In this document: one piece after another, positions 11,561 to 59,445 of the stretch
Numbering within the stretch: position 1 is the stretch's first letter
How the letters are laid out: every line of letters starts with the position of its first letter
Assembly: GCA_965215565.1 (NCBI GenBank)
Contig: CBDCDZ010000004.1
Location: 640,001-704,000, forward strand
Direction: 5' to 3'
Length of the DNA: 64,000 nt
Source of the DNA: Trueperaceae bacterium
GTDB lineage: Bacteria > Deinococcota > Deinococci > Deinococcales > Trueperaceae
Made by a program: the position numbers and the translations under genes
Notes under the pieces: generated by a model
The model's input: only the letters and a program-made list of their open reading frames with translations
What the model was told of the DNA's origin: nothing
The model's database searches: none

Positions 11561-11604
11561 AGCACTAGTGTGGCGCGTTTTCGTGGTGAGGACTAGGGGG
11601 TAAA

Positions 11605-11727
11605 GAGCAATGAGTTGAAAGCAATGAGCAATGAGTCTAAAGTCCTTGAATTCCACTCATTGCTCATATAGGTGAGCACGTAAAGTGCTACGGGCGCAGC
11701 CCTTAACCTAGCTCGGTACTCATTGCT
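11605..11727. repeat. Heptamer-built hairpin repeat (GAGCAAT/GAGT units), copy 1
   Basis: gagcaatgagt...actcattgctc; related copies at 14632, 27875, 35661 and 57171. Confidence 0.75.
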
Positions 11728-11839: not shown

Positions 11840-13225
11840 ATGGACTACGAACTACTGATTATCGGCTCAGGACCGGGCGGCTACCACGCGGCGATTCGCG
11901 CGGCGCAGCTCGGGATGAAAGTGGCGTGTGTGGAACAGGAGTATGTGGGCGGTGTGTGCCTCAACGTCGGCTGCATCCCTACCAAAGCGCTCCTCCACGT
12001 TGCCGAAGACTTGCGTGAAGCGAAGCACGCGGAGGATTACGGCATCAAGTTCGGTGAGCCGGAAATTGATCTCAAGGCGATGGACAAATGGAAGGACGGC
12101 GTCGTCAAGAAGCTCACAGGCGGTGTGCGCAGCCTCTTCAAAGGCAACAAGGTCGAACTGATCGAGGGGACCGCCAAGTTCAAGGACGAAAATACGGTAG
12201 AGGTCGGCGACAAGACCGTCACAGCGGACAAAATTATTGTGGCGACGGGCTCGGAGCCAATTGAAATTCCCGGTTTCGAGACGAACGGCGAGACGATTGT
12301 CAACTCGACGGGTGCGCTTCTGGTCTCCGAAGTGCCGGAGCGCTTTCTAGCCATCGGCGGCAGCGCCATCGGCTTAGAGTTCTCGGACATTTATAACGCA
12401 CTAGGCTCCGAAGTGACCGTCGTCGAACTCATGGACCAGATCGTCCCGACGTCCGACCCCGACGCGGCGAAGGAGTTGCGCAAGTCGTTCGAGAAGCGCG
12501 GCATCAATATTAAGACGGGCGCGAAGGCGACGGGGCAGAAGGAGACCGATGACGGGCTAGAGGTCACGCTCGAGACTGAAGACGGTGAAGAGACCATCAC
12601 CGTGGACAAGATTCTCGTCGCGGTAGGGCGCAAGCCGAGGGGGGAAAACTTAGGGCTCGAGGACATCGGCGTCAAAGTCGAGCAGGGTTTCATTCCCACG
12701 AACAACCACATGCAGACCAACGTCCCGCATATCTACGCCATCGGCGACGTGGCGCGTCCGCCCCTCTTGGCGCATAAAGCCATGAAAGAGGGCTTAGTCG
12801 CCGCCGAGCACGCCTCCGGCAAACCGAGCGCGTACGACACTATCGTACCGAGCGTCGTCTACACGAGCCCCGAACTCGCGTCCGTCGGCATGAGCGAGCA
12901 GGAGGCGAAAGACGCGGGACACAACGTCATCGTGGGTAGCTTCCCGATGCAAGCCTCCGGGCGCGCCATGACGCTAGGCGTCACCGAGGGCATCGTTAAA
13001 GTCATCGCCGACGAAGAGTCGGACCAGCTTTTAGGCTTTCACATGGTTGGACCGAGCGCGGGAGATATGGTCTCCGAGGCAGCACTCGCCATCGAGATGG
13101 GCGCGACGCTAGGTGACATCTCGCTGACGCAGCACGCGCATCCCACCATCGCTGAGAGCTTTATGGAGGCGGCGGAGGCGGCGCACGGCGAGGCGATTCA
13201 TATTGCAAATAAGAAGAAAAAGTAG
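11840..13225 (+). CDS. lpdA: Dihydrolipoamide dehydrogenase
   Basis: [19 protein letters not shown] and HPTIAE motifs. Confidence 0.95.
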
Positions 13226-13400: not shown

Positions 13401-13422
13401 GCGTCATATCGTAGCAAGGGGT

Positions 13423-13582
13423 TATACGGATTCCGGTTGATTGCTACATAAACTCCGACGCTTCGCGCTTCGTTGGAGTCGGAGTTTCTTCCGCAATCAC
13501 CGGAATCCGTCACTGTTTTTACTCGCATCCGCTCGGGATTAAACACGCTACTTTGTAGCGTGTTTAATCGGAAAGGGTATTA
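13423..13582. repeat. ATACGGATTCCG-type palindromic repeat, copy 1
   Basis: Inverted homolog at 58919-59056; internal hairpins; overlaps the stop codon of ORF 13580. Confidence 0.85.
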
Positions 13583-14509
13583 CAACCCTTTGTTAGCGAA
13601 CGTCACCCAATCGGGTTCAATCTCGAAGCCGAGTTTGCGCAAAACATACTGCGTAGAGGCGTTTTCTTTTGCGCCGCCACCCGCGTTGAGTTCGGTGTAG
13701 CCTCTGGATTGAGCGAACTCAGCGACTAGGGCCCCTAACACCGTTCCAATTCCTCGGTTACGGTAAGCGCGTGAAACGCCTAGAAAAGCGATGGCTGTCG
13801 TTGTTCTGTCGTCCACCTCGAGCCCCGCATATCCAACATACTGCTCGTTATGCACAGCGACAAAAATGCTGCTCCGATTTATCTCAGGACTATGAATGTC
13901 AGGGTGATGTTTGGGAATAATCGGCTCATGATAGGGGGCGTCGGCTTCTGTTTCAGCGTGAAGCGCTAAGAGTTTTTCGTCTCTCTCAGCGTCACCCAAG
14001 AGGTCAGGAAAAGGTTTGATGGCGACGCCTTCTGCCTCCAACCTCTCTGTCAGAGGTGAAAACTCGGTAGCGTCAAACTGCGAGAGGTTAAGCTCGCCGC
14101 CGAAGCTGCGGAACTGTTCTGTAAATCCTTCCAGATAACCCGACATCGGCACGAAGTCCTCACGGACGCAGCTCCAGACCTCTTTAGCGGATAAGTTAAA
14201 ATGGGTTAGGGCGTACTCGAGCACCCGCGTGTCTACACCTGTGTTGCGGTGGTCGGCTCGAGTCACAATCCCCGTCCACGTGCGCCCTGAAACGGTTGTC
14301 CCCGCCCAATTTGTCGTGAGATACCCTGTCGCGATGACCTCACCGTCTTTTTCGGCAACGTAGCGCCGATAGTGTGGGTCACTGCGCCGCTTGATCTTAT
14401 CCGAACACTGCATCTGCTCGGGTGTAATCTGAAAGTGAGGTTCGTTTTGGGCGTTATGAACCTTTGCTGCTTGGGGGTAGTCCTGTTCTGCAATGCTGCG
14501 AATAAGCAA
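13580..14509 (-). CDS. Tandem GNAT acetyltransferase
   Basis: Two motif-A segments (RADHRNTG; VSRAYRNRGIG) and N......RKLGF. Confidence 0.8.
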   Translation of the reverse strand: MLIRSIAEQDYPQAAKVHNAQNEPHFQITPEQMQCSDKIKRRSDPHYRRYVAEKDGEVIATGYLTTNWAGTTVSGRTWTGIVTRADHRNTGVDTRVLEYALTHFNLSAKEVWSCVREDFVPMSGYLEGFTEQFRSFGGELNLSQFDATEFSPLTERLEAEGVAIKPFPDLLGDAERDEKLLALHAETEADAPYHEPIIPKHHPDIHSPEINRSSIFVAVHNEQYVGYAGLEVDDRTTTAIAFLGVSRAYRNRGIGTVLGALVAEFAQSRGYTELNAGGGAKENASTQYVLRKLGFEIEPDWVTFANKGL

Positions 14510-27093: not shown

Positions 27094-27873
27094 ATGTCTA
27101 CTCACGCAACCTCTACGTCGACCTCTCAAAACGTCGACCTCATGCTCATCGTCCCCCACCCCGACGATGAAGTTTTTAGCTGCGGTGGGATTTTCACCAA
27201 GATGGCAGACGCAAGCAGGCGCGTCGCTACAGTGACGCTCACAAGGGGCGGCGCAGGGCGCACGTTAGGGATATGCCCGCAAGCCGAACTGCCGAATGTG
27301 CGCGAGGCAGAGCTTCGCGCGTCGTTGGACGCTTTAGGCGTCGGCGACGTGCACATCTTCGACTACCCCGACTTCGTCCCGGCGGCGGACAGGGGCATGG
27401 CGACGAACAGAGGGCTCGCGGGCGAAAGCGAGGAAGAGGTCGCGGCGCGCCTTATTTCACTTTTGGAAACCCATAAGCCGAGGGCGCTCATCACCTTTCC
27501 GCCGAACGGCGCGAACGGTCATCCTGACCACGTCGCTACAAATCAACTTGTACTGAAAGCGTTGAAAGACGCGGAACACGAGGTTGAGTCTCTCTATTAC
27601 TTCGCCGCCGAAAAACCCTATAGCGGCGCGGCGAGGGAGGGTTTTTTGAGCCCGGAAGAGATTCGCGCCTCGCACCTGCCGCCCACACACGTTTTCGACG
27701 CGAGCCCCTTTGTAGAGAACAAACTGCGGGCGATGGGACAGCACGAAACGCAGGCGCGGAGCGTCTTGACCTTTATGCGCTCCTTTCCGCGCCGCCTACT
27801 CGCCGAGTCCTTTCACCGCGCTAAGCCCGACTACCCCGAGAGCGAGGGTCCGAGGACGGTGGCTTGGTTATAG
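27094..27873 (+). CDS. PIG-L/LmbE family deacetylase
   Basis: PHPDDE, R.AEL, GHPDH and H.TQ motifs. Confidence 0.9.
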   Translation: MSTHATSTSTSQNVDLMLIVPHPDDEVFSCGGIFTKMADASRRVATVTLTRGGAGRTLGICPQAELPNVREAELRASLDALGVGDVHIFDYPDFVPAADRGMATNRGLAGESEEEVAARLISLLETHKPRALITFPPNGANGHPDHVATNQLVLKALKDAEHEVESLYYFAAEKPYSGAAREGFLSPEEIRASHLPPTHVFDASPFVENKLRAMGQHETQARSVLTFMRSFPRRLLAESFHRAKPDYPESEGPRTVAWL

Positions 27874-27874
27874 G

Positions 27875-27930
27875 GAGCAATGAGTACCGAGCAATGAGTC
27901 TAAAGGTTTTCACTCATTGCTCGTTGCTAC
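27875..27930. repeat. Heptamer-built hairpin repeat, copy 3
   Basis: gagcaatgagt-ctaaaggttttc-actcattgctc. Confidence 0.75.
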
Positions 27931-28025
27931 TTCCTCCTCTATGAAACACCTCATTCGACTTCACATTTTGTCCTTCCAAATGAAATGCCTTGCAGCGTCA
28001 TGAAAGAGGCGTGCTAGGCTAACTT

Positions 28026-35554: not shown

Positions 35555-35660
35555 AAGGTTGACTATACGGGTACGAGGAGCGATGTGACGTGGAAATCTG
35601 CATTTGTGAGAGGGAGAGTGTACCGACGTCACAACTGGGAGAGATTGGGGCGCAGATAGG

Positions 35661-35730
35661 TAGCAATGAGCAACGAGCAATGAGTAAAACCTTTTGGACT
35701 CATTGCTCGTTGCTTTCAACTCATTGCTTT
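35661..35730. repeat. Heptamer-built hairpin repeat, copy 4
   Basis: agcaacgagcaatgagt...actcattgctcgttgct. Confidence 0.75.
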
Positions 35731-35789
35731 TTTCTAGCAAGCAAGCTTACAGCGATAGGTCTCTTTAGAGGTCATGCTCGAGTTTATAG

Positions 35790-41465: not shown

Positions 41466-41681
41466 CTGACGCTATTATAGCGCGTCGCTACCGCCATAGC
41501 TGTTTCGGGACGAGCGGCGAAACGTGGTCACGGTCTCAAATAAACAGCAGTTCCAAAACATACTGAGACAAAGTGTCGCAGGTATCATTACCGAACGTGT
41601 GCTGCTTACGCAGTTTTCCGAAGGAAACGACGTTCTCAAAAGTAAGAGTGTCTCAAACCAGATGAACTTAGTATAGAGTTG

Positions 41682-42620
41682 TCAAGCCCCCTTCCACCTC
41701 TGTGGGTGCTGCTGAGTGACTTGCAGCATGAAACGAAAGAGTTCTCTTGCGAGATAGGTTTTGAGACTTCTTAGAGCAGCCCGGCGGGTCTTGCCTTGCT
41801 GCTGTTTCTTGTCGAGATAGGCTCTTGTCGGTTCGCTGTGGCGCAGTCTGACTTGGGCAATCATGTGAAAGGTGCGGTTGAGCCGACGGTTGCCGCCGAT
41901 GTTGAGTTGCCTTCTCTTCTGACCACCAGAAGAGCGCTCGACAGGCGCACAACCTGAATACATGGCAAAGGCGTGTTGTGAACGAAAGCGTCGGATGTCA
42001 CCTGCTTCAGCAAGTAGCGTGGCGGCGTGAACGACGCCGACGCCAAAGACCTCTAAGAGTTCAGGCATCAGTTCGTCAACGAGGGCTTTCATCGCCTGCT
42101 CGAGCGTCTTGAGTTGTTCTTTAAGCACTGCAATAACGGCTTCGACGGCTTGGCGAGCCACCTCTAGCTCAAGGCTCGCTAAGCTCAGCTTGTGCGCTGT
42201 AAGCTGTTTAGCTAGCGCTTCTCGGGTGCGGGTCAGATGTTTGAGGTCTTCAACCGCTTGCCGAGGTGCAAACGTAGTCAGCTCAGGATTAGCCAAAGCA
42301 GCCCGAGCTACGTTTTCAGCGTCTACCTCATCACTCTTCTTGCGTCCTCTTTTGCTGCGGTACTGACTCGTCAGACTCGGACTAATGTCCACAACCTTAT
42401 GGTCCTGCCCGAGCAACGCTTGACTCAACCTCCGAGCAAAGGGGTTATTCGCCCCTTCAATAGCGCACCGCTGAACGTCATAGCGCTTTATCCAGTGCTC
42501 CAAAGTTGCCAAGCCCTCAGCCGTATTCGTAACGGTGCAGTGACCTAATACCTTGCCCTGTTTATCTAACGCTGCTGCGGTATGGCTCTGCGGATGTGGA
42601 TCAACCCCTATAATGACCAT
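41682..42620 (-). CDS. IS110 DEDD recombinase (bridge recombinase)
   Basis: IGVD, AIEG, KSDEVDA, APVERSSG (catalytic Ser) and GGNRRLN motifs; AAGGAGG RBS. Confidence 0.95.
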   Translation of the reverse strand: MVIIGVDPHPQSHTAAALDKQGKVLGHCTVTNTAEGLATLEHWIKRYDVQRCAIEGANNPFARRLSQALLGQDHKVVDISPSLTSQYRSKRGRKKSDEVDAENVARAALANPELTTFAPRQAVEDLKHLTRTREALAKQLTAHKLSLASLELEVARQAVEAVIAVLKEQLKTLEQAMKALVDELMPELLEVFGVGVVHAATLLAEAGDIRRFRSQHAFAMYSGCAPVERSSGGQKRRQLNIGGNRRLNRTFHMIAQVRLRHSEPTRAYLDKKQQQGKTRRAALRSLKTYLARELFRFMLQVTQQHPQRWKGA

Positions 42621-42780
42621 ACAACCTCCTTAGGTTGCTGCTCACGGTAGCTGCTTATCCGTCTATGAGGCTACTAAGCGTCTTAGTATCAGGCAAGCTC
42701 CGTGTAGCTTAGTGAGCGAGGTGTGCAGTTCATCTGTTAGCCCTAAAGCTGATACTTGCTGGGCATCACCTCGCTTCTCT
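42621..42780 (-). ncRNA. Predicted IS110 bridge RNA with target- and donor-binding loops
   Basis: Stem GCGAGGTG/CACCTCGC encloses AGCAAGTATC and CAGATGA (target guides); a second stem encloses ATACTAAG and TAGACGGA (donor guides); RNA ends approximate. Confidence 0.8.
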
Positions 42781-42807
42781 TAATATACGGATACCTGCTA
42801 AAAAAAC

Positions 42808-42841
42808 GGAAGAGGTCCGCTTTCTAAAGCGGACCTCTTCC
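42808..42841 (-). terminator. Intrinsic terminator after aconitase
   Basis: GGAAGAGGTCCGCTTT/AAAGCGGACCTCTTCC with a T run on the minus strand. Confidence 0.8.
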
Positions 42842-47466: not shown

Positions 47467-47693
47467 CAGCAGGTATCCGTATATTAAATGAGGTGCTGCT
47501 AGGCAGCAAACTGCGTAACTAAGTACTCCAGCCTAAATAATCTAAACTATTTTGGAAAGATTTCTCCCTGTAAGATGCGTTTCGTCAACCTCTTTAGTTT
47601 AGGTTATTTCCACGCACCTACTTATCATGTATATTCTGAGATGAGATTCCGTTAAGCTGCGCCTAACTGTCTCAATATGTCACGGAACTGCTC
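47467..47693. mobile_element. Chimeric MITE A relic with an IS110 left-junction sequence
   Basis: 47468-47487 is identical to the reverse complement of 42780-42799; MITE left end at 47669-47693. Confidence 0.65.
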
Positions 47694-53270: not shown

Positions 53271-53327
53271 TTTGAATCTATAGCTTAGACCTCTTCATGG
53301 TTTGATTGACCACGCCGCTCTATTATT

Positions 53328-53428
53328 TAGCAGTTCCACGACATACTGAGACAAAATGCCGCAGATATCATCTCGTAAAGTGCGTGCTACTCAAAGTGAG
53401 AGCGTCTCAAACCAGATGATACCTGCTA
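53328..53428. mobile_element. Minimal 101-bp MITE A (ATT duplication), empty IS110 target
   Basis: TAGCAGTTCC...CCAGATGATACCTGCTA. Confidence 0.85.
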
Positions 53429-55410: not shown

Positions 55411-55705
55411 TAGCGTTTCCACTTATCGTTGCTTGGACGAAGTCATTCCCGGAGGGAAACTTCGTAAGCGAAGCAACACTTCTTCGCAGATTTCACAGCT
55501 TGCTGTAACGGAACTTCATCATAATCAAGTGCGTGCTACATTTCTAAAAGCTGCTCCGCGTGAGCGAGCAGACGGAGTTTTCGCAAGGCGAATTACGAAG
55601 TTTTCCGATTACGTAGTTTTTGCGCAGCAAAAGGAAACAGTGTTTTCTACAGTGAGGGTGTTGCTTTGCAAAACTACGCATACTCAGACTAGATAATACC
55701 TGCTA
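55411..55705. mobile_element. Expanded MITE A derivative with stacked ACG(A/G/T)AGTTTT hairpin units
   Basis: Right end AGATAATACCTGCTA; homologous to 14800-14948; left end uncertain. Confidence 0.55.
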
Positions 55706-56048
55706 CTTATCGCTAAAATCTCCAATTCCCGCTAGCGAACAAAGGGTTGCAACTCCTTGTTCATATTCAGTGAGCATTCCAGAGTAAAGCCACTACCATA
55801 TTTACAACGAGAAGCTCGAGAGAATTCCCCATGACCTCTTCTGCTCAGTCCGTCCAAGCGGAACGCACAGCAGGTCCAAACTATACTGCGGCGGATGAAC
55901 GCAGGTGGCATCTCCAAACGTATAGGCTAGTCGGTGTTTTCTCGAGTGTGCGCGTTTTTGACCAGATGAACTTAGTATGAAGGCACCGAAGAGATATCCC
56001 AACACAGCTTACACCCCTCTCGCCGCGAGGTTCGTTAAAATTGAGGTC

Positions 56049-57173: not shown

Positions 57174-57336
57174 CAATGAGTGAAAAGCAATCTAGTCAAG
57201 CTGGTGGCTTTAGCTTCTGAAGGAACGATTACGAAGTTTTCGCAGAAGCGAAACGGTGAGCAGCGAGTAAAAAGCGTTTGACTTTAGCTTTCAACTCACT
57301 GCTCGTTGCTTTCAACTATCTTTTACTCATTACTCA
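57171..57336. repeat. Heptamer-built hairpin repeat, copy 5, with a 24-bp insert at 57229-57252
   Basis: Homology to 14632-14707 and 35661-35730. Confidence 0.7.
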
Positions 57337-58012: not shown

Positions 58013-58921
58013 ATGAAAGGTGAACTTAGTGCGGCTGAATTAGAAACCCTGAGCCACCGCTACGGCTGGACGGACGCAACCGCTTCACTTCTTCACAGCG
58101 GGGAAAACGAGACCTTTTCGGCTGAGTCACAAGAGGTGCGCTGCGTAGTCCGAAAGTATCGCCAACGCACCCTCTCCCCCATCCGCGCCGAACTCGCCTG
58201 GATATCGGAATTGTCAAAAGAGGTGGCTGCGCCCCTAGTCCTCCCCACAAAACAAAACGCCCTCTTCACGCAGATAGACGGTCAAATTTACGCAGCGTTC
58301 GAGTACCTCGAGGGTCACTTTATCGAGGAGAACACCGCCGCCAATCTCTTCCGTTTGGGGCAGCTTTTCAACAGACTTCACATCACCTCAGAAGGGGTCA
58401 TGAAGAGGATGCCACCAACTTGGATAGGCTGGCAGCGTCCAACTTTCGACCGTCAAGAGGTCATCCAAAAGCCGCTCGAGCACCTCACAACCGCCGACTT
58501 CTTGACTAGTCAAGATAAAGCGAGATGTGAGCGTGTAGCGGCGGAACTCAGCGAGCGGTGGCGACTCACAGAGAAGACCTTCATCCACGCAGATTTGCAT
58601 TTTGGAAACGTTTTAGAGCGAGAGGATAGTACGTGGTTCTGCTTGGACTTTGGTGAATGTGGCTTCGGCTCGAGATATTTTGACCTGGGCGTCGTCAAGT
58701 TTCACCTCATGGCGGAGAGTGGGCTCGAGTATCTTCCCGACTTTTTAAGAGGTTACGGCGAGACTATTTCAGAGCAAGACTTGAGCCTCGGCACGGCGGC
58801 GCGCATCTTTTACACGGCGGGTAAGGTTCCAAAGCGCTTGGATATTCCTGATTTGGCTAAAAATCCTCGGGCGGTCATTCAGCGCTATTTGGGGTATCTC
58901 GAGTCGGAGTTGGAAGGGTAA
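58013..58921 (+). CDS. APH/homoserine kinase type II-like phosphotransferase
   Basis: IHADLHFGNVL and LDFGEC motifs. Confidence 0.88.
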   Translation: MKGELSAAELETLSHRYGWTDATASLLHSGENETFSAESQEVRCVVRKYRQRTLSPIRAELAWISELSKEVAAPLVLPTKQNALFTQIDGQIYAAFEYLEGHFIEENTAANLFRLGQLFNRLHITSEGVMKRMPPTWIGWQRPTFDRQEVIQKPLEHLTTADFLTSQDKARCERVAAELSERWRLTEKTFIHADLHFGNVLEREDSTWFCLDFGECGFGSRYFDLGVVKFHLMAESGLEYLPDFLRGYGETISEQDLSLGTAARIFYTAGKVPKRLDIPDLAKNPRAVIQRYLGYLESELEG

Positions 58922-59056
58922 TACCCTTTCCGGTTAAACACGCGACTTTATCGCGTGTTTAATCCCGAGCGGATGCGAGTAGAAAAAGTACGGATTCCGG
59001 TGAGTACGGAATCAACTCCGAAGGAGTTTGTGCAGTAATCAACCGGAATCCGTATA
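58919..59056. repeat. ATACGGATTCCG-type palindromic repeat, copy 2
   Basis: Inverted homolog of 13423-13582; begins at the TAA stop of ORF 58013. Confidence 0.85.
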
Positions 59057-59445
59057 AGTGCTCACTCAGCACCGTGAGCTTCAAGACTTCACGCTGCCAC
59101 AAAGAGAGTTTCCTCTTCGTCAACTTCGCTAGTCTACATTCGCATTCTTACTGCGCTCCCAGGCGTCTCCCGAACCCTCTTAGGTGTTTCCGTGGGCACA
59201 TCTAACCCGTTGACCTCGCACTGCTCGGCGCGTCTGTGTGCGCTTCTCGCGTAACCTTCTCTATCCAAACCCACCTCATACCTCGTTATACCTCGTTGCT
59301 TAAACCGTCTAACTATGGGGACACCTCTTTAAGATGCGGAGCGACGCATCCAGAACCTGCGCTTTCAAGATGGGGCTTCGCGGCAGACCTAGCTCGTGAG
59401 CAGCCACAGGCGCAGCAAATCACTGGAGGCTCGAGGAGACGATGT

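Follow-up and report, generated by a model that had tools for sequence, protein, structure and literature searches.

The closest described counterparts of the element reported here are IS621 and ISCro4/IS622. In IS621, recombination takes place at a CT core, the second T of which is nearly invariant and is read by residue G63 of the recombinase; a T is needed at this second position, which limits where IS621 can be aimed (PMC11208158). The left donor guide of its RNA pairs with P1-P8 of the donor, and mismatches there are poorly tolerated, with the exception of P7 (PMC11208160). Work on IS621 also indicates that the handshake pairing state promotes strand exchange. A copy-out mode of excision has been argued for (10.1101/2025.10.25.684509 and 10.64898/2026.08.31.748434), so that the excision step proposed below is a tentative one.

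Other members of the family provide further points of comparison. ISPpu9 and ISPpu10 of Pseudomonas putida, likened here by published descriptions rather than by sequence, offer a seven-copy IS110 element inserted only in intergenic repeats, in that case REP palindromes, and ISPpu9 recombines at a non-CT core (AG). IS4321 and IS5075, of the IS1111 group, use as their target a terminal inverted repeat that belongs to a different mobile element (the Tn21 family), but they carry their RNA in the right end and have long subterminal repeats, in contrast to the left-end RNA and MITE target described below. Natural reprogramming is known from ISEc11 and ISXne4, related elements in which guides have been replaced along with matching new targets (PMC11187229); there the target itself is replaced, whereas in the present elements the repeat stays the same and the guides move along it by 3 nt. 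The mechanism considered here is the known bridge RNA one, and repeat targeting, non-CT cores and natural reprogramming are already in print. A first-pass annotation of this DNA overstated its novelty, as IS110 elements at REP repeats or transposon ends, and cores other than CT, had been published. We found no published description of a TC-core IS110 clade or of an IS110 element at a MITE end, and preprint supplements could hold the clade; those supplements of PMC11208160 that are searchable gave no match for Deinococcota. A mining of 32,190 bridge RNAs (10.64898/2026.10.21.760802) may already include the clade without describing it. Further papers accompany the IS110 comparison (10.1101/2025.05.14.653916, PMC13626964, 10.64898/2026.08.14.744561).

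The window, a stretch of 64,000 nucleotides from a Trueperaceae bacterium (genome G000), contains on its minus strand an IS110-group element of 1,126 bp (41664..42789, one copy of the TC core counted), the features of which are collected in Table 1. The long non-coding end that holds the RNA lies 5' of the gene, which places the element in the IS110 group and not in IS1111; judged by its core, 5' stem-loop and left donor pairing, it falls outside the narrow IS621 clade. We regard it as very probable that this is an IS110-group insertion sequence using an IS621-type bridge mechanism and guided to the 5' end of a resident MITE. The first-pass annotation had proposed an IS110 bridge recombinase with a TC core at a MITE end, and genome-wide mapping, tests on the MITE and guide-flank covariation all agree with this; every motif that it cited lies on the minus strand at its coordinates, and the 17-mer of the empty site has exact matches at 13223 and 53412-53428.

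Table 1. Features of the element and its surroundings (positions in the window)
Feature	Positions	Strand	Remarks
Recombinase, 312 aa	41682..42620	minus	D7, E55, D97, D100, S230; stop codon inside -35 box
Intrinsic-terminator-like hairpin of upstream gene	42808..42841	minus	directly before MITE head
Left junction: MITE head TAGCAGGTA and core TC (42791-42790)	42790..42800	minus	all 7 full copies; last 10 bases in 4 left-end remnants
Putative -10 box TATATT of end-joining promoter	42782..42787	minus	18 nt from TTGACA in the reconstructed circle
Target-binding loop	42716..42774	minus	outer stem 42774-42767 / 42723-42716; fold
Left target guide GCAAGTATC	42751..42759	minus	8/9 to used sites, mismatch at P4
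Right target guide CAGATGA with handshake guide AC (42729-42728)	42728..42736	minus	guide 7/7; AC pairs donor P6-P7
Donor-binding loop	42640..42708	minus	consensus fold with compensatory pairs
Left donor guide	42680..42689	minus	ACTAAG pairs donor P1-P6, P7/P8 unpaired; AT before it also fits donor
Right donor guide ATAGACGGA (42666-42658) with handshake TA (42657-42656)	42656..42666	minus	7 pairs, 2-nt flip-out; TA pairs target P6-P7
Conserved hairpin over recombinase GGAGG ribosome-binding site	42622..42637	minus	consensus fold, 8 left ends; function inferred
Right end: -35 box TTGACA (41685-41680), left-donor site ACTAAGT (41672-41666), core TC (41665-41664)	41664..41685	minus	with 42791-42790, the two TCs of the filled site
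Remainder of host MITE (to 41545) and 3-bp duplication TTT (41544-41542)	41542..41663	minus	partner duplication 42803-42801
Left-junction remnant of element in another MITE copy	47467..47495	plus
Empty 111-bp MITE copy	53318..53428	minus	AAT duplication
Right-junction remnant of element, then MITE body	55968..55978	minus

The recombinase matches Pfam PF01548 and PF02371, both above cut-off (DEDD RuvC-like and Transposase_20 domains), and NF033542 with 171 bits against a cut-off of 140. Its relatives were found by an alignment-based contig search, a contig search with the single protein having given none; those that carry a name indicate that the host belongs to the Deinococcota. Across the 42 that were aligned, out of 120 relatives listed, D7, E55, D97 and D100 are invariant and S230 is present in at least 90%; these residues align with D11, E60, D102, D105 and S241 of IS621. 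The structure model (pLDDT 91) finds its best matches in IS621 and ISCro4, at TM scores of 0.70-0.74 and 23-26% identity, with 0.73 for IS621. At 312 aa the protein is barely shorter than IS621 (a 328-residue PDB chain), and "compact", the term originally applied to it, does not set it apart.

With IS621 and ISCro4/IS622, from which it differs in having only ~25% protein identity, the element shares the fold and the combination of DEDD domain and Tnp serine, an RNA in the left end with one loop for the target and one for the donor, target guides of 9 nt (left) and 7 nt (right), handshake guides, a right donor guide with a 2-nt flip-out, a (here predicted) junction promoter, and the use of a multicopy intergenic repeat as insertion site. 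The non-canonical pair at target P4 is shared with IS621. It departs from IS621 in its TC core, in the absence of the 5' stem-loop that precedes the target loop, in pairing six of the eight left donor positions rather than all of P1-P8 (P7-P8 unpaired), and in targeting a MITE with target duplications instead of REP. Its natural guides, in distinction to those of IS621/ISCro4, already have the 7-nt right target guide and both handshake pairs.

The target repeat falls into a sharp 111-bp size class, and its termini are inverted repeats of 6 bp. Of the 195 copies whose tail is intact, 134 are flanked by a 3-bp duplication (1,000 shuffles gave a mean of 6.2 and a maximum of 14); these properties identify it as a MITE, and it also has many copies and lacks coding capacity. 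Its head occurs 209 times exactly in G000, with 441 matches at up to three mismatches; within the family, 16 of 128 genomes have it, and these belong to 7 of 36 genera. The window alone has six matches to the empty 17-mer at up to three mismatches, against 0.04 expected, a number reached in none of 100 shuffles. Matching duplications are kept in four of the six IS-bearing MITE copies that have a tail, from which it follows that the IS entered pre-existing MITE copies. Only 19 of the 286 target sites overlap ORFs of at least 150 aa, which make up 74% of the chromosome; of the suggestion that the MITE serves as a safe harbor, it is the intergenic placement that has held up. Among the repeated elements and head-tail pairs of G000 there was no parent transposase with MITE ends. 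Repeated IS-like elements at C4:1813833-1814713, 837813-838839 and 2098471-2099296 have TAG...CTA ends like those of the MITE, differ from the fourth base onwards, and are possibly distant kin of its parent, as far as their termini indicate.

G000 contains seven full copies of the element, six identical over 1,125 bp and one with a single change, together with six junction remnants (four left-end and two right-end) at the same position as the full copies, two of them inside the window. Mapping of the genomic copies to their flanks, a check proposed at the outset, placed all 11 left junctions at a single TC, 9 nt inside the MITE, and all nine MITE-type right junctions at that same TC; two donor-like 11-mers, at C4:2776231 and 1360313, were excluded from the count, ~2 being expected by chance. 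In all seven full copies the left junction is TAGCAGGTA-TC and the right one TC-ATCTGG, with the core TC at both, and there are no long terminal inverted repeats, as in the IS110 family. Beside the TC, target and donor no longer agree, so the core is limited to these two bases. A core shifted by 1 nt (NT) was ruled out, as target and donor differ at that base. The non-coding ends measure 169 nt on the left and 16 nt, from stop codon to core, on the right.

Not every one of the seven full copies stands for a target choice of its own. In two pairs of IS-bearing MITEs the partners have stretches of 76 and 52 nt, respectively, in common that are absent from every empty copy, for which conversion or carry-over of flanks is the likely cause, and at least five of the seven copies are thus separate choices of target. 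There is an appreciable chance, well short of even, that part of the copy number has other origins: gene conversion, circles carrying flanking DNA, or a MITE transposase moving MITE and IS as a unit. The shared stretches speak for such copying, as none of 5,000 random draws of eight empty copies gave two such pairs, as do the outer MITE inverted repeat, which is intact after insertion, and a locus at C4:3452615, where an IS fragment lies between two copies of 67 nt of MITE. On the other hand, at least five distinct MITE bodies hold full copies, the same site is used in genome G257 and in a metagenome locus (L031), and copying leaves the guide covariation described below unexplained. Transposition of the whole unit fits less well than conversion, since the shared stretches break off within the MITE and are followed by different tails. 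The C4:3452615-3453450 locus consists of a MITE head and the 67-nt duplication on either side of a 3' IS fragment with many small deletions, and may be a recombination product or an assembly artefact. Outside the window, C4:421041-421985 holds another IS110 relative, present once and 56% identical, which contains an internal stop and has A for D97. Its left end is set apart by different guides and a longer first loop, and the donor-side motif and the right end change together.

Folding the left end and checking for covariation, as had been recommended, gave z = -4.07 and, from eight left ends, a consensus of two symmetric loops in which 17 of 35 pairs show compensatory change; there is no 5' stem-loop, and only 15 nt separate the core from the first stem. 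The left end was placed in the guide register of IS621, as given in PMC11208158 and PMC11208160. The right donor guide, first described as matching at seven of eight positions, is better drawn as ATAGACGGA, 7/7 with a 2-nt flip-out in the IS621 layout, and this arrangement is the same in nine rows of at least 63% identity, with P12 varying. Two handshake guides had been missed altogether; both dinucleotides pair with P6-P7 of the opposite partner. Rfam returned no match within the window at gathering scores, and a covariance model used in looking for orphan bridge RNAs matched only the seven full copies in G000 (150 of 198 candidates scored).

In essence, we propose that excision would join the ends of the element in a circle and so create a promoter, TTGACA-N18-TATATT. 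In reconstructed circles, TTGACA-N18-TATA(T/A)T has the same spacing in all nine parsed elements of at least 63% identity, and homologues with the -35 box nearer the core have a weaker -10 box further in. A promoter scan of the linear element gave nothing, as expected for a junction promoter; the assembled contigs of four sequencing runs contained no end-to-end joint, and contigs are unable to show a rare circle. The junction promoter would transcribe an RNA of ~135 nt that has two internal loops and lacks a 5' stem-loop, a structure that covariation supports. Its first loop would pair with the 5' end of the 111-bp MITE, on both strands, and its second with the joined ends of the element, whereupon the recombinase would exchange strands at the shared TC, with both handshake dinucleotides favoring the exchanged state. 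Targeting of the MITE would offer ~290 near-matching sites, nearly all outside genes. The lineage appears to have kept to this MITE family, its guides changing with the local variant and with the choice between two adjacent TCs.

The left donor guide is the least regular part of the RNA. It was originally said to miss the three core-proximal bases; the mismatch is real, but it comprises two bases (P7 and P8), as IS621 pairs only P1-P8. P8 is unpaired in all nine rows of at least 60% identity and paired in all 18 rows below that value; L035 (56%, outside the P8 table) pairs its left donor 8/8 and L226 pairs P8, so the loss of left donor pairing is variable. An alternative, which we consider rather unlikely, is that the guide is an 8-nt one lying 2 nt further from the core (ATACTAAG), the clade reading a 16-bp donor and the protein handling the left side of the core. 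The register of the scaffold makes ATACTAAG the 8 nt after the stem, with an 8/8 match, and puts the two variable bases at the place of the 2-nt linker of IS621; but the AT is invariant in the DNA, so covariation has nothing to offer, in L013, L037, L038 and L035 the IS621 register gives full pairing at P7 and P8, and P8 pairing below 60% identity is without exception.

The relation between guides and flanks was examined in 36 non-duplicate close loci. TC was found at both junctions in 28 of these, which were kept; the other eight were truncated, disrupted or otherwise different, one having a different right end and one an apparent CC core. The junctions were located by patterns containing TC, and core positions were therefore excluded from the covariation tests. 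The 27 rows with a target loop fall into 15 target classes by right guide, one of which is the present element. Over these classes the left target guide matches its cognate site at 85 of 105 positions (43.0 when permuted) and the right target guide at 68 of 75 (26.5), and for the left donor P1-6 the figures are 89 of 90 against 77.5. The handshake base at P7 fits the opposite partner in 27/27 and 26/28 rows or, by class, in 15/15 (11.4 permuted) and 13/15 (7.3), and the cognate strand in just 1/15 and 0/15; the two-base test of the donor-loop handshake was not significant (15/30 vs 11.9, p 0.08). The homologues are related, so that permutation p-values overstate the case, and the effect sizes are large. 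Two loci found later fit as well (L218, left guide 8/9; L226, left 8/9 and right 7/7), and the left guide fits poorly at the sites of some homologues (L121, L116 and L111). That protein or MITE structure picks the site and the RNA matches are incidental is most improbable: ISPpu10 is described as requiring a target stem-loop besides base pairing, and a perfectly matching MITE subfamily is unused here, but guides follow flanks over 15 classes, a shift by 3 nt within one repeat among them. A structural determinant acting beside the guides, not replacing them, is possible.

The site spelled by the guides has two perfect and 290 one-mismatch matches in G000, against 0.6 expected, and 286 of the 290 are two variants of the MITE head (234 and 52 sites), each off at a different base. 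That one guide lies a single mismatch from each of two MITE subfamilies is new. The left target guide is mismatched at P4 at every used site, and the A variant, which it matches fully (52 sites), holds none of the 11 left junctions. Avoidance of this subfamily was considered and dropped, 0/11 not being significant (~0.11 for random choice among 286). The same guide pair is retained at 92% and 71% protein identity.

Also new is the use of the same repeat, at another position, by relatives in other genera. The MITE head holds two TCs, 3 nt apart. The three copies (75% identity) in genome G260 lie in members of the same MITE family but occupy the second TC, and their two guides are shifted; this second TC is also the site of remnants in G246 and G257. 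The G246 guide spells a head variant with 57 copies in that genome and five in G000, and many of the G246 copies sit in short tandem arrays, not in full MITEs. The tree, for which 12 of 18 proteins were used, is unresolved inside the clade as to the direction of the slide. Another branch of the clade (L032, L184, L187 and L191) targets a different intergenic hairpin repeat (GAAGCAA-TC), which indicates that repeat targeting is general in the clade. We thus have an RNA-guided element that takes the end of another element as its landing site, and in the register slide and the two-subfamily compromise there are directly testable cases of bridge guide change.

The E60-A61-T62-G63 segment of IS621 aligns with an invariant E55-G56-A57-N58 in the present clade, and N58 in place of G63 may account for the TC core. 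A broader proposal, offered tentatively and at somewhat less than even weight, is that these elements form an undescribed clade of TC-core bridge recombinases, ~25% identical to IS621 and with a minimal RNA of ~135 nt, in which Asn in place of G63 would set the core preference, the core-proximal left donor bases would go unread by the RNA, and the target guides would track one MITE family across genera, with a compromise guide here and a 3-nt slide elsewhere. If so, the clade would open cores not accepted by IS621 and ISCro4 to a reprogrammable recombinase, and would provide a natural record of guide evolution against a moving target. A TC-core relative with a shorter RNA and both handshake pairs present is, on the sequence, a plausible new tool, and a TC core in place of the CT of the versions in laboratory use could widen the sites that such tools reach. 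In a Chloroflexota record (L122, 42% identical), the left junction and guide suggest a CC core.

Several observations concern the repeats themselves. Many MITE copies contain hairpin modules, small (20-70 nt) and stereotyped, that are inserted at a limited set of positions (41545-41663 and 55640-55705 hold examples), giving size classes near 130, 150, 180 and 200 bp. The MITE head also occurs as body-less head-to-tail arrays with a period of 22-33 bp, in G000 (C4:179865-179946 and 1994337-1994432) and in L193, L200 and L202, and thus in several genera. A second, unrelated family of intergenic palindromic repeats, with a GCAATGAG motif, is found in the window at 11602-11641, 27870-27935, 35656-35742 and 57289-57317, and a third, with a GGATTCCG motif, lies in inverted orientation at 13422-13583 and 58918-59057.
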